Assembly: GCA_030149585.1 (NCBI GenBank)
Contig: JASFBJ010000001.1
Coordinates: 1 to 38,218 of the forward strand
From: Desulfobacterales bacterium
Lineage (GTDB): Bacteria > Desulfobacterota > Desulfobacteria > Desulfobacterales > JASFBJ01
Direction: 5' to 3'
DNA: 38,218 nt
The notes under the pieces are model-generated. The model had not been told where the DNA came from, did no database searches, and was given only the letters and a program-made list of their open reading frames with translations. Below, one piece after another: positions 16,532 to 36,141 of this stretch; positions within the stretch are counted from its first letter, which is position 1, and every line of letters starts with the position of its first letter. Position numbers and translations under genes: made by a program.

Positions 16532-18037
16532 ATGAAAAAACATAAACTACTCTTGATTGATGATGAAAAAGTAAATGTCAGGGTACTGGCTTTGTCGTTA
16601 AAAAGTGATGGCTATGATGTTATTACAGCTTATAATGGAAAACAGGGGCTTGAAAGTTTTATAAAAAATTCGCCGGCTATAATTATAACTGATATTAAAA
16701 TGCCTGGGATGGACGGCATTGAGCTGCTAAAAAATATTAAAGAGCATAATGCCGGAGCTGAAGTTATAATCATTACCGGGCATGGGGACATAGATTTGGC
16801 TATTAAAGCTTTGAAATATGGTGCCTCTGATTTTATTAATAAACCCATAAGAGATGAGGTACTGGCAGTAGCTCTGAAAAGAGCGGAAGATAAACTTGAT
16901 ATCCGGGAAAAACTCAAAGAATATACCAATAACCTGGAAAATATGGTTAAGATTGCAACTGAAGATGTTAGAAGAAAATCAAATTTTCAGGCCAAACTGA
17001 TTAAAAGCTCCAGTGAAGGTATTGTGGCCACCGACGATAAGTGGAAAGTTGTTATTTTCAATCCAGGAGCTGAAAAAATATTTGGTTATTCAAAATCAAA
17101 AATTGTCGGAAAAACAAATCTAAAAGATCTTTTGCCGGCGAATATCCGCCATTTTTTTGAACTTGAAAAAAAAGTTATCCGGCAGCAGAGTTTTATTATA
17201 AATAATAATGGCGAACAAGTCCCTGTCCGATTTTCAGGTACAATTCTTCAAGAAGCAGATAAAATGATGGGTTGCGTTGCCTTTTTCCAGGATTTAAGAG
17301 AGATTAAACAACTGGAAAAAGATCTGGTCCATTCTGAAAGGCTGGCGGCTGTCGGGCAGACTATGGCTGGCATGGCTCATTGCATAAAAAATATTTTACA
17401 TGGATTTAAAGGAGGAAGCTATCTGGTAAATATCGGACTTGACAAAAATAATCCGGATAAGTTAAAAAATGGTTGGCAGATGGTTCAGCGCAATATTGGA
17501 CGAATATCTGATCTTGTTCTGGATTTGCTTTCATATTCAAAAGACAGAACTCCCGAACCGCAAATTTGTTTTCCAAACAAAATTGCAGCAGATGCTTGTG
17601 AATTATTGCAGAATTCGGCAGAGGAGCAAGAGATCACCATTTTTCAGGACTATGATTCGTTGATTGGGGAAGGTCTTATAGATTCCCGCATGTTACAGCG
17701 AATTCTGTTGAATCTTATATCCAACGCAATTGATGCTTGTATTTTTGATGAAACCATTGGTAAGTCTTGGCAGGTTAGTGTAAAAACCACGCTTATTGAT
17801 CAGCAGATGATTATATTGGAAGTACAAGATAATGGTTGCGGCATGAGTGATGAAGTTAAAGCCAAGCTTTTTTCCTCTTTTTTCAGCACCAAGGGATCTC
17901 GTGGTACCGGGCTGGGACTGCTTGTGACTCGTAAGCTTATAAAAGAGAATAAAGGCAGCATTGAGGTGTCGTCCGTGGTTGGCAAAGGAACTGTTTTTAA
18001 GGTCAAGCTGCCTTTTAAAGCAGGTAATCAACTTTAA
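16532..18037 (+). CDS. Hybrid receiver-PAS-histidine kinase
   Basis: N-terminal REC (LLIDDE...IITDIKMPGMDG...DFINKP); PAS-like middle; H-box MAHCIKN; HATPase LISNAIDA, DNGCGMS and GTGLGL. ATG at 16532 (the track starts at the TTG at 16529). Confidence 0.85.
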   Translation: MKKHKLLLIDDEKVNVRVLALSLKSDGYDVITAYNGKQGLESFIKNSPAIIITDIKMPGMDGIELLKNIKEHNAGAEVIIITGHGDIDLAIKALKYGASDFINKPIRDEVLAVALKRAEDKLDIREKLKEYTNNLENMVKIATEDVRRKSNFQAKLIKSSSEGIVATDDKWKVVIFNPGAEKIFGYSKSKIVGKTNLKDLLPANIRHFFELEKKVIRQQSFIINNNGEQVPVRFSGTILQEADKMMGCVAFFQDLREIKQLEKDLVHSERLAAVGQTMAGMAHCIKNILHGFKGGSYLVNIGLDKNNPDKLKNGWQMVQRNIGRISDLVLDLLSYSKDRTPEPQICFPNKIAADACELLQNSAEEQEITIFQDYDSLIGEGLIDSRMLQRILLNLISNAIDACIFDETIGKSWQVSVKTTLIDQQMIILEVQDNGCGMSDEVKAKLFSSFFSTKGSRGTGLGLLVTRKLIKENKGSIEVSSVVGKGTVFKVKLPFKAGNQL

Positions 18038-18042
18038 TAATA

Positions 18043-18150
18043 TATAGACCGTCGCATAAATAATTTCACTGCGTTATCGGTCGGAGATATACTATTCGTA
18101 TTATCTCCTCTCTCTGGCCTTGTGAAATTTATTATGTGACAATTTATACA
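18043..18150 (+). repeat. Copy A of a ~108-nt long-hairpin repeat element (candidate structured RNA or MITE)
   Basis: About 93% identical to 34869..34976. Outer stem GTCGCATAAATAATTTCAC / GTGAAATTTATTATGTGAC. Inner stem GGAGATATAC / GTATTATCTCC. It lies in the 132-nt gap between the hybrid kinase and the receiver gene. Confidence 0.85.
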
Positions 18151-18169
18151 TAGGCCAGGAGGTTTTATA

Positions 18170-18562
18170 ATGGGGAAAAAGGTACTTGTTGTTGATGATG
18201 ATCCTGATGCAAGATTATTTAATATAACCGTCGTAGAAGAGTGTAATTATACTCCACTGGAAGCTGCTGACGGGGAGGAGGGCCTTAAACTTGTCAAACA
18301 GGAAAAACCGGATCTGGTCATTCTCGATGTTTTTATGCCTCGTCAAACAGGAATTAGATTATATCGTGAGCTAAAAACCGATAAAAGATTTAAGAATATT
18401 CACATTATTATGCTTTCCGGTATTCCAAAGAAAACCTTTTTACGCTCCCAAAAAGCTTTGACTGAATTTGGGGAGCAAGAAGTCCCAGAGCCAGAGGCTT
18501 ACCTGGAAAAACCGGTTGAACCTGGAGAGTTGATGCAAACCCTGAAACAGATACTTGAGTAG
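18170..18562 (+). CDS. Single-domain response regulator (CheY-like receiver)
   Basis: AGGAGG RBS; VLVVDDD, LVILDVFMP (phospho-acceptor Asp) and YLEKP (conserved Lys). Confidence 0.85.
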   Translation: MGKKVLVVDDDPDARLFNITVVEECNYTPLEAADGEEGLKLVKQEKPDLVILDVFMPRQTGIRLYRELKTDKRFKNIHIIMLSGIPKKTFLRSQKALTEFGEQEVPEPEAYLEKPVEPGELMQTLKQILE

Positions 18563-20996: not shown

Positions 20997-21084
20997 TGGT
21001 GCCGGAGGAGAGAATCGAACTCTCACGGGCGCAAGGCCCGGAGGATTTTGAGTCCTCTGCGTCTACCAATTTCACCACTCCGGC
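20997..21084 (-). tRNA. tRNA-Leu (anticodon CAA), class II with long variable arm, encoded CCA
   Basis: The minus strand reads GCCGGAG-TG-GTG-AAATTGGTAGA-CGC-A-GAGGA-CTCAAAA-TCCTC-CGGGCCTTGCGCCCGTG-GAGAG-TTCGATT-CTCTC-CTCCGGC-A-CCA. All four stems pair, and the anticodon loop is CT-CAA-AA. Confidence 0.9.
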
Positions 21085-25424: not shown

Positions 25425-25739
25425 TTAGATGTTATTTATTTTTAAATTATAATATTTTTTTTTAAAAATCAAGACATCCTTTTTAATCTGCTGATCCAGG
25501 GTTCCTCGAATTTTTTGGGCATCAATCTGATAATTGAAGTTCTGCATTATGCCTCGATAGCGCACAGCTTCGATAAAGGCATTGGGCAGAAAGTGTTCCG
25601 GCTGCTCACAGCACAGTATTCCGGCCACGGATGCACGAAGGTTGCCGTTTTCCTCTTTGGACAATAGATTTCGCTTTAACAAAACGACTTCTGAAGGTTC
25701 CTGAGACCGGTAACAAACTGGTAATTTTAGCTCGAACAA
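25425..25739 (-). pseudogene. Internal fragment of an AlbA_2/divergent-AAA-type putative DNA-binding regulator gene (truncated remnant)
   Basis: SVAGILCCEQPEHFLPNAFIEAVRYRG...IDAQKIRGTLDQQIKK matches the linker region that follows the AlbA_2 domain in ~400-500 aa proteins. There are only 104 codons, a TTG pseudo-start and a degenerate AT-rich tail. The N-terminal AlbA_2 and C-terminal ATPase/HTH parts are absent. Confidence 0.5.
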
Positions 25740-25740
25740 A

Positions 25741-25797
25741 CCTAACCTAAATCTGTGCGCCTACTTGTGGATGTTATTTCGTCCACGTTCCTTAATA
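25741..25797. repeat. Truncated copy (loop + right arm) of the 71-nt hairpin repeat family
   Basis: 50/55 identical to 32185-32239. The left arm is missing, and the copy abuts the pseudogene fragment. Confidence 0.8.
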
Positions 25798-32165: not shown

Positions 32166-32236
32166 AGGAACGGGGACGAATTAACCTGACCTAAATCTGT
32201 GCGCCCACTTGTGGAAGTTATTTCGTCCTCGTTCCT
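32166..32236. repeat. Complete copy of a 71-nt hairpin repeat (15-bp stem, 41-nt loop)
   Basis: AGGAACGGGGACGAA (32166-80) pairs with TTCGTCCTCGTTCCT (32222-36): 14 Watson-Crick pairs plus one G-T. Loop + right arm are repeated at 25741-97. The right arm alone occurs at 5659-84 and 31691-712. Confidence 0.8.
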
Positions 32237-34266: not shown

Positions 34267-34487
34267 TAGATTCTCCTATGCTTATGACTGTTGCTGTTCG
34301 TTTCTATGATCCATGCTCTGATTCCAAGCGTAAAAATTCAAAGAATAAAATCCAAAACATAAATATAGATGCAAAAAATGTTCCTGATCGATATTTTACA
34401 TTCAAAATACAGATTCTACAGCGCCAGCTCTGATTTTTCACTTACCCTGCGCGTTAAAAATAAATTTGTTAAGAAAATTCAAAGCCA

Positions 34488-34670
34488 TCAGGCTTTTTTA
34501 TCATCCTCCAGTTCATCTTTTTTTTTATTATCAGCTTCTGTGGAAGCATTTTTAAAATTTTTAATAGCTTTTCCCATACCACCCCCGATTTCCGGAAGTT
34601 TGCCAACTCCAAAAATGATAAGGATTATAACCAGAATGATTATTAATTCCGGCATGCCAATTCCAAACAT
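34488..34670 (-). CDS. tatA: Twin-arginine translocase subunit TatA/E
   Basis: [49 protein letters not shown] is canonical TatA. 60 aa. Confidence 0.9.
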
Positions 34671-34868
34671 AAGAACCTCCTGTTTTTTTTACACCCATTT
34701 TTTATATGATATTTTCGACATTATTCATTTAAAATCACAATTATTTTTAACTCATAGCAGTATGTAATGAAAGTGTCAATCTGAGACCAGGGTTAAAATC
34801 AAATCAATTTTTCAGGGCCAAGGCTTTGTGTATTCTGCTGAACTCTTGAACTTATCAGCCCGGCATGC

Positions 34869-34976
34869 TATAGACCGTCACATAAATAATTTCACTGCGT
34901 TATCGGTCGGAGATATATTATTAGTATTATCTTCTTTCTCTGGCCTTGTGAAATTTATTATGTGATAATCTATATA
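34869..34976 (+). repeat. Copy B of the ~108-nt long-hairpin repeat element
   Basis: About 93% identical to 18043..18150. It lies in the divergent tatA / 35059 intergenic region, about 85 nt upstream of the + strand start codon. Confidence 0.85.
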
Positions 34977-35058: not shown

Positions 35059-36141
35059 ATGCCACAAAAATTTCAAGCTGATTGTCTGCCGGTTTTAATC
35101 GGCAGTCTGCCTCTTTTGGATCATCTTGCAGCAGCAGAACTAATCATGAAAAGCACACCCCAAATTCCACTTTGGGCACAGCTCCCGAATCTCCCCGGCG
35201 AAGATATGCTGACTCAGTTTCTTGATGGTTTGCCAGGGCTTGAAATTAAACCAGGGCTTGAAATTAAAAATGATAAAGCCATAATCAATACCGGCATGGC
35301 TGATTTCGATAATCAATTGCTCGATTTTTATGAAAACTATATGGCTGTTATTGATGGGCAAAAAAATATTTTCAATTCCCGCTTTTCCTTGTCTTCCAAA
35401 ACAGCACCAGGCTTTTTTACACTACTTGATCAAATACCACAACTATCATCTTTAAAAGCGGTTAAAGGTCAAATTACAGGGCCTGTAACGTTTTGCACAG
35501 CTCTGACGGATCAGGATAAAAGAGCGGTTTTTTATAATGAACAGGTTCGGGATGCAGCAGTAAAAATGCTTGGATTAAAAGCTGCCTGGCAAATCAAGAA
35601 ACTTGCGGTTGCCGGCTGTCCTGTAATTATTTTTATTGATGAGCCTGCTCTGGCCGGCTTTGGTTCCTCTGAGTTTATCAGTATTACCAAAGAGGATATT
35701 TCAACCTGTTTAAATGAGGTAATTGAACAAATTCATCAGGCAGGAGGCCTTGCAGGAATACATGTATGCGCCAATACAGACTGGTCCCTGGTAATGGAGT
35801 CTGAGGCTGATATTATCAATTTTGATGCCTATAGTTATTTTGATAAATTCTACCTCTATCCAGACCAGATCAAAAATTTTATGGGAGCCGGCCGCATTCT
35901 GGCCTGGGGCATTGTGCCGACCTTAAGAGGGGAAGATATTGAAAAAGAGACAGTGGCTTCCCTGGAAGCTTCCTGGATAGATAAAGCATTACAAATCGAA
36001 AAGCTTGGAATTCCCATGAAAATTCTCAAATCTCAATCTTTAATTACTCCAAGTTGTGGAACAGGCTCTTTAAGCCTTGAACATGCAAAAAAAGTGCTTA
36101 TTTTAACAAATGAACTTTCTCAGAGGTTACAGGAAAGCTAA
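35059..36141 (+). CDS. MetE-C-terminal/UROD-like (TIM-barrel, putative Zn-dependent methyltransferase-like) protein
   Basis: VKGQITGPVTF, IIFIDEPALAG, GIHVCAN and LITPSCGTG resemble the IDEP / HxC / C motif spacing of cobalamin-independent methionine-synthase-like proteins. Called by eye only. Confidence 0.4.
   Translation: MPQKFQADCLPVLIGSLPLLDHLAAAELIMKSTPQIPLWAQLPNLPGEDMLTQFLDGLPGLEIKPGLEIKNDKAIINTGMADFDNQLLDFYENYMAVIDGQKNIFNSRFSLSSKTAPGFFTLLDQIPQLSSLKAVKGQITGPVTFCTALTDQDKRAVFYNEQVRDAAVKMLGLKAAWQIKKLAVAGCPVIIFIDEPALAGFGSSEFISITKEDISTCLNEVIEQIHQAGGLAGIHVCANTDWSLVMESEADIINFDAYSYFDKFYLYPDQIKNFMGAGRILAWGIVPTLRGEDIEKETVASLEASWIDKALQIEKLGIPMKILKSQSLITPSCGTGSLSLEHAKKVLILTNELSQRLQES

Follow-up and report, generated by a model that had tools for sequence, protein, structure and literature searches.

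A 106-bp palindromic repeat separating a hybrid histidine kinase gene from a receiver gene of a Desulfobacterales bacterium is most likely a TA-duplicating MITE

Bacterial MITEs are shorter than 200 bp, carry terminal inverted repeats (TIRs) and 5'-TA-3' termini, duplicate their target upon insertion and can form long stem-loops (Delihas, PMC2229807). Mutual nesting of such bacterial repeats has been described as well (PMC10969869). Judged by description, and with hosts that belong to a different phylum, the known elements closest to the one studied here appear to be Correia/NEMIS, RUP and ERIC, each of which shares a distinct set of traits with it. The Correia element of Neisseria (CREE/NEMIS) is likewise a non-coding palindrome (~105-155 bp) with TIRs of ~24-26 bp and 5'-TA-3' termini; it duplicates its target, is present in more than 100 mostly intergenic copies and is co-transcribed to yield a long RNA hairpin (PMC2229807, PMC2649163). 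RUP of the pneumococcus is alike in its length of 107 bp, its ~108 intergenic copies, its TA target, the absence of coding capacity in all frames and its insertion into other mobile elements (PMC2229807, PMC3049150). ERIC (IRU) of the enterobacteria is a comparable imperfect palindrome of ~127 bp with terminal TA, which varies from tens to hundreds of copies between taxa and is transcribed within operons, ERIC itself having orientation-dependent effects on mRNA decay (PMC10969869, PMC2229807). Once part of an mRNA, the hairpins of Correia and ERIC are cleaved by RNase III or influence RNase E-dependent decay (PMC2649163, PMC10969869). A further similarity exists to REPINs and other REP-RAYT repeats, which are hairpin-forming, intergenic, present in tens to hundreds of copies and accompanied by singlet remnants.

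The element occurs twice in the window, i.e. the complete 38,218-nt stretch of Desulfobacterales DNA that was analysed here. A first-pass annotation had recorded both hairpin copies as spans of 108 nt. Their location is correct, while the exact limits enclose 106 nt each, so that two flanking bases of either span are surplus. The parts of the better-scoring copy A and the limits of copy B are as follows.

18043..18148, + strand: MITE copy A, 106 nt long with both flanking TA dinucleotides counted (nhmmer score 110.8 over model positions 1-105)
18043..18044, no strand: left TA of copy A, putative target dinucleotide duplicated upon insertion, as judged from empty sites compared for other copies and not from the locus of copy A
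18045..18069, + strand: 5' terminal inverted-repeat arm TAGACCGTCGCATAAATAATTTCAC
18070..18078, + strand: asymmetric 9-nt bulge TGCGTTATC, which follows the family motif TGCGTYRTC and does not vary between genomes
18079..18119, + strand: interior module
18079-18082 with 18116-18119: interior pairing of GGTC with GGCC
18083-18108: inner hairpin, made up of GGAGATATAC (18083-18092), the loop TATTC (18093-18097) and GTATTATCTCC (18098-18108)
18109-18115: CT-rich tract
18122..18146, + strand: 3' terminal inverted-repeat arm GTGAAATTTATTATGTGACAATTTA
18147..18148, no strand: right TA of copy A, putative second copy of the duplicated target, again by analogy with other copies
34869..34974, + strand: MITE copy B, likewise 106 nt long (nhmmer score 107.9)

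Copy A lies between a REC-PAS-HATPase hybrid kinase gene, the stop codon of which is at 18037, and a stand-alone receiver gene that starts at 18170, as originally annotated. Within this gap of 132 nt it starts 5 nt past the stop codon of the kinase and extends to 8 nt ahead of the AGGAGG of the receiver gene, disrupting neither stop codon nor ribosome-binding site. Copy B is located between two + strand ORFs, one of 132 aa (34369-34767) and one of 360 aa (35059-36141). Around copy A (17850-18350), a terminator-like site is not predicted, and the promoter-like matches found there are weak consensus matches. Given the 132-nt gap without a terminator-like site, it is plausible that copy A is co-transcribed within a kinase-receiver operon. 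The interior of the element holds a sigma-70-like match (TTCACT-17-TATACT, 9 of 12 positions); we dropped its reading as a promoter, in which the conserved bulge would be the promoter spacer. The sole Rfam match in the window at gathering score is a tRNA gene at 21000-21084 on the minus strand (53.4 bits).

The whole-genome search proposed along with the first-pass annotation shows that copies A and B are two of ~50. In the corresponding metagenome-assembled genome (MAG; 3.72 Mb, 524 contigs, 40% G+C), 41 matches were obtained, which were resolved by BLAST and an nhmmer profile into four groups. These amount to ~26 full-length and ~25 truncated or partial copies, including ~13 internal fragments that keep the 5' arm only and ~10 copies that stop at a contig end, the assembly being broken by the repeat; a few variants possess a different core. 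Canonical copies measure 105-108 nt, and no ORF spans the element at copy A. All copies are strictly intergenic and adjoin housekeeping genes such as those for RNase Y, TyrRS, SHMT, RpiB, NrdR, SelB and aconitase, and many are found at contig ends of MAG assemblies.

Beyond this genome, an invariant 17-mer that contains the bulge (TTTCASTGCGTYRTCGG) was detected in 36 of 401 Desulfobacterales MAGs sampled. It is spread patchily over the families of this order, with 1-110 hits per genome compared to a single hit in total for a reversed-pattern control. Carrier genomes contain from 1 to ~135 copies of the element, the highest number being that of the closed two-contig genome G058 (270 arm hits). 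The exact 31-mer of the 5' arm was retrieved from seven named MAGs, all of them assigned to Desulfobacterales, Desulfobacteraceae or "Deltaproteobacteria", while a plasmid collection contained no similar sequence. As a literature search returned no description of a Desulfobacterales MITE, the family is apparently undescribed.

Two peculiarities of individual insertions were observed in the genome of the window. At five loci (C336:4071-4175, C15:20768-20862, C74:83-118, C320:8256-8310 and C220:3904-4007) the upstream ORF stops at the TAG of the TATAG terminus and thus overlaps the element by 4-5 nt, which implies that the insertion supplies or replaces the stop codon. Moreover, inverted pairs of copies on C73 (16684-18592) and C220 (2016-4007) bracket ~1.7-1.8 kb of housekeeping genes, namely RNase Y on C73 and SHMT together with a dCMP-deaminase-like gene on C220. 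This composite-transposon-like arrangement is probably coincidental.

The same genome holds an unusual abundance of small repeats, probably the reason for its fragmentation into 524 contigs. One of these, Rep2, is a second and more abundant palindromic repeat of ~190 nt (GGAACGAGGACGAAATAACTTCC...GGAAGTTAATTCGTCCTCGTTCC) that starts with GGAACGAGGACGAAATAAC. An internal 19-mer of Rep2 occurs 98 times in the genome; partial copies are present in the window at 25721-25791 and 32177-32235, and the reference copy (G000:C399:6567-6750) has TAA apparently on both sides. Rep2 is probably another MITE family. Further repeat families were encountered beside truncated copies of the element (C135:3681-3749, C318:7898-7938 and, downstream, C16:1815-1872), among them a repeat of ~200 nt that is 99% identical on C63, C351, C269 and C62, and one of ~75 nt with ~20 copies.

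The limits of the element are sharp. In every genome the flanks diverge immediately beyond TATAG...CTATA and the arms measure 25-27 nt, the termini TATAG...CTATA being constant in all genomes compared. To define the target we made use of insertions into other repeats. In 96 of 98 copies Rep2 reads CAGATT-TA-GGTCAGG, while the copy on C258 reads CAGATT-TA[TAGATCG...CAATCTA]AA-GGTCAGG; here, the element interrupts Rep2 at the TA, leaving a TA on the left and a TA that has diverged by one base (AA) on the right. Likewise, family members are nested in each other in genome G024 (L162, L169, two cases in L166, and also L186). At these nested sites the host consensus shows a single TA, and the filled site a TA on either side of TAG...CTA. 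We therefore infer that the element inserts at TA and duplicates it, with a paralogous repeat consensus rather than an orthologous empty site as reference. An equivalent comparison of orthologous sites, in which the flanks of copies from other MAGs were blasted against the window's genome, matched one locus only, and its two flanks were on different contigs.

Some derivatives deviate from the canonical structure. At L195 (G058:C1:107100-107330), a mini-derivative of ~38 nt that consists of the two terminal arms only (TATAGATGTTCACATAAAT/TATTTATGTGACGAGCTATA) abuts a full copy, with which it has the junction TATA in common. In subfamily-2 copies of G024 (L172, L173, L179, L183, L192) a different element with tandem TGTTGAATG units is inserted in the TA-rich apex, and this repeated insertion identifies the apex as an insertion hotspot.

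The dispersed, intergenic and multi-copy occurrence, the sharp ends and the TA on both sides of nested inserts lead us to conclude that the element is very probably a MITE, i.e. a non-coding, non-autonomous DNA transposon of 106 bp with TIRs of 25-27 bp that inserts at TA and duplicates it. A MITE family had been among the alternatives named at the outset, and it is this alternative that copy number, sharp ends and TA insertion support. Multi-copy dispersal, strictly intergenic location, sharp ends and TA insertion into other repeats are direct observations. Mechanistically, a transposase supplied in trans would bind both arms and cut and paste the element; lineages that spread would have to keep matching arms, the palindromic interior and the TGCGTYRTC bulge, whereas each inserted copy would decay neutrally. 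Copy A would be such an insertion, placed in the 132-nt gap between hybrid histidine kinase and receiver.

As for the mobiliser, TA duplication is a hallmark of transposases of the IS630/Tc1-mariner type (ISY100, PMC2170065; RUP with IS630-Spn1, PMC2229807). Together, TA duplication and sharp TIR ends would point to a DDE-type cut-and-paste mechanism. A search for IS630-type DDE_3 genes returned none in the window's own genome and none in the closed genome G058 with its ~135 copies. G024 contains one intact IS630-like element, which we rejected as parent since its ends (TAGTGTCGCGTTTTGAAAG) are unrelated to the family, and the IS630 match of genome G032 is a pseudogene that only by chance has a MITE close to it. 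Neither the neighbourhoods of solo arms nor the IS630-type loci yielded an autonomous element with the ends of the family, and no IS-sized pair of ends was present among the matches listed for G058. MAGs often lose IS copies. The solo 5' arms were also considered as ends of longer insertion sequences and discarded, as there is no 3'-arm partner on the same contigs and the neighbours are housekeeping genes.

These solo arms bear on a second mode of mobilisation, in which the element would resemble a REPIN, i.e. a REP doublet hairpin that a RAYT (Y1/HUH) transposase moves in the form of single-stranded DNA, with the solo 5' arms as REP singlets. The long-hairpin architecture, the excess of solo 5' arms in the window's genome (~13, compared to 1-2 solo 3' arms), the presence of Y1_Tnp genes in all five genomes tested and the GTAG...CTAC palindromes at the apex of some G058 copies are in line with such an origin. 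Nevertheless, neither element nor motif was found near any of the 12 Y1_Tnp loci fetched from the five genomes, TA-flanked ends with TA duplication are not produced by single-stranded Y1 transposition, and at least the solo arms on C16 and C78 are copies truncated by the insertion of other repeats. Hence, we regard a REPIN-like nature as extremely improbable. The apical modules just mentioned, which have the form GTAG-stem-loop-stem-CTAC (e.g. GTAGGGGTTCAAGATTTTGAACCCCTAC, GTAGAGACGCAAAATTTTGCGTCTCTAC), were seen in L066 and in L196, L198, L199 and L200, the latter four located in G058:C1 around 112.8, 150.3, 213.3 and 222.8 kb; they resemble the REP sequences recognised by RAYT transposases.

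The first-pass annotation had favoured another explanation, according to which the element encodes a structured RNA on the + strand (an intercistronic processing or stability element, an attenuator or an sRNA) whose pairing is kept by G.U-compatible substitutions. Taken by themselves, the two copies in the window agree with this view. Each can be folded into a long, nearly end-to-end hairpin, and the stems named initially are present in both. The eight differences between the copies were confirmed inside the 108-nt span; the four stem differences listed among them are all G.U-compatible on the + strand, and a fifth (18145 vs 34971), which is located in the terminal TATAG/CTATA stem, is a G.T compared to a G-C pair. 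Both copies are also more stable when folded as + strand RNA, with minimum free energies of -34.3 kcal/mol (+) and -31.2 kcal/mol (-) for copy A and -33.8 (+) and -25.8 (-) for copy B; the + strand fold of copy A has a z-score of -5.97, and none of 200 dinucleotide shuffles was as good. The position of copy A inside a probable operon without a terminator-like site fits equally well.

At the level of the family, the argument from + strand pairing breaks down. We analysed 82 copies that came from four sources and were grouped into five subfamily sets, restricted the analysis to positions that are Watson-Crick paired in the consensus of each set, and counted distinct variant states. The private stem states comprise 40 that are G.U on the + strand and 45 that are A.C on the + strand, i.e. 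G.U on the minus strand (binomial p = 0.66), in addition to 83 that are mismatched on both strands and 13 that are compensatory. A first count, confined to the solid stems of the window's own genome, had yielded 21 cells with G.U, 11 with A.C and 33 with a mismatch on either strand alike. In the consensus of that genome, the outer stem places CC opposite AA, a mismatch on the + strand but two G.U pairs on the minus strand. Furthermore, the minus strand is the stabler RNA in 69 of 86 canonical copies (by 4.5 kcal/mol on average), so that copies A and B belong to a + favouring minority. Family-wide, pairing thus favours neither RNA strand, and the + strand covariation between copies A and B is a sampling accident within a family of ~50 copies.

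The orientation of the copies relative to co-directional flanking genes leads to a similar picture. In the window's genome 11 copies have the same and 6 the opposite orientation. Pooled over all sources the ratio is 39:31 (p = 0.40), for G024, the sample of which was enlarged by 40 loci, it is 20:18, and for elements of the window's own type there is a weak lean of 24:13 (p = 0.10). Only own-type copies in gaps of up to 100 nt, taken from the window's genome and seven related MAGs, show a more pronounced ratio of 16 same to 5 opposite (p = 0.027, uncorrected), which speaks for a + strand RNA but is absent in G024 (4:7) and G032. This lean may reflect orientation-dependent tolerance inside operons, or chance. 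Comparison with Rfam, which had likewise been suggested, yielded no family that matches the element at either gathering or permissive thresholds, the best element matches having E > 1 and at most 17 bits compared to gathering scores of 40-100. The CU-rich tract, which resembles an anti-Shine-Dalgarno sequence, is not universal and gives way to CGCCGCC in one G024 subfamily. Copies in both orientations together with stem substitutions that break + strand pairing are the very outcome that the first-pass annotation had named as refuting its reading. As no segment is protected within genomes either (see below), a dedicated + strand RNA has to be considered very improbable.

What is conserved between genomes differs from what is conserved within them. 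Between genomes the arms differ at about one third of positions, with both sides changing together (GTCACATAAATAA/TTATTATGTGAC vs TTCAGATATTAAA/GTAATATCTGAAA), and the inner stem covaries as well (GGAGATATAC/GTATTATCTCC to CGGGATATAC/GTATTATCCCG). The bulge TGCGTYRTC remains unchanged, interior and bulge being better conserved than the arms, and the apex is swapped between subfamilies for unrelated, still palindromic sequences. RNAalifold returned no structure for a gappy alignment of 86 sequences; covariation was therefore evaluated on a cross-genome alignment of 42 sequences with the structure specified by hand. Hereby 17 of 37 pairs are changed on both sides (107 cells), a value reached in none of 500 shuffles, and the true structure pairs 88% of cells vs 32-46% in slid-partner controls. 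Helix 1, formed by the arms, accounts for 23 pairs, 9 of them changed on both sides across genomes, and is 91.8% paired over the 42 sequences, while in helix 3, the inner hairpin, 7 of 10 pairs are changed on both sides. Such covariation is expected for two transposon ends that are recognised by one protein, and template-switch correction of quasi-palindromes can produce it, too. Since it has sources other than RNA, it is by itself no indication of an RNA.

Copies within a genome show no trace of selection and decay evenly along the element. Among copies found by whole-element similarity, 5.1% of bulge positions and 6.1% of arm positions deviate from the consensus (p = 0.34). An earlier signal of bulge protection was rejected as an ascertainment artefact, because the copies in question had been found via the bulge motif. 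This pattern suggests that transposition, rather than a host RNA, is what is constrained, and in the simplest reading palindrome and bulge are needed for continued transposition, i.e. they are subject to selection among element lineages.

A transposase that merely binds the TIRs does not predict the better-conserved interior and bulge or the covarying inner stem, which argues against the simplest form of the transposition model. One could consider that hairpin and invariant TGCGTYRTC bulge are the substrate of a structure-recognising mobilisation machinery that is not of the IS630 type. This would explain why the palindrome of the whole element is kept by compensatory changes while the apex can be swapped, why the bulge is constant between genomes, and how G058 came to hold ~135 copies without an IS630-type transposase; all the same, we judge it unlikely. 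In a milder version, the bulge may be a site for a host factor on which active lineages depend.

Finally, the element may be a MITE whose hairpin has been co-opted at some loci, possibly including copy A, for mRNA processing or stability, or by way of outward promoters or stop codons, in an orientation-dependent manner. Many copies occupy gaps of less than 100 nt that separate co-directional genes, with which they are necessarily co-transcribed, their hairpins are very stable (-31 to -48 kcal/mol), the TATAG terminus provides the TAG stop of the upstream ORF in several copies, and the 16:5 lean of own-type copies in tight gaps would be accommodated. There are precedents in the cleavage of Correia TIRs by RNase III and in the effects that ERIC exerts via RNase E (PMC10969869, PMC2649163). 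Against this, no copy is conserved beyond neutral decay, and the orientation lean, the p value of which is uncorrected, is not seen in G024 or G032. Co-option at individual loci appears unlikely. For a MITE without such a role, copy A, if co-transcribed, would still give the mRNA a stable long hairpin, a side effect of its DNA being palindromic, whichever way it had inserted.

Compared to its closest counterparts, the Desulfobacterales family shows several differences. Its likeness to Correia, found in a different phylum, rests on size, TA ends and the TATAG terminus and not on sequence; Correia ends, too, reportedly begin with TATAG, and we know of no cognate transposase for them. An IHF site, outward promoters and RNase III cleavage have been demonstrated for Correia, while the invariant asymmetric 9-nt bulge and the exchangeable apical hairpins set the Desulfobacterales family apart. 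The TIRs of RUP match IS630-Spn1, its candidate mobiliser, whereas no matching IS630-type ends were found for the present element. ERIC differs by its contiguous TIRs of 7 bp and its ORF potential from an element with arms of 25-27 bp, and REP-RAYT systems by the Y1/RAYT association that the Desulfobacterales element lacks. The invariant bulge, the upkeep of the palindrome over the whole element and the missing IS630-type partner in a closed genome constitute its residual novelty.

In conclusion, reading copy A as a TA-duplicating MITE removes a false lead, leaving a kinase-receiver operon without a dedicated regulatory RNA gene. The Desulfobacterales harbour a widespread but patchily distributed family of such elements, characterised by TA target duplication, self-nesting and modular apical hairpins. 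Elements of this kind fragment MAG assemblies, and operon mRNAs can acquire stop codons or hairpins from them. They also mimic structured RNAs in covariation screens, where the inverted repeats of a transposon give rise to strong 'compensatory' signals without any RNA function.
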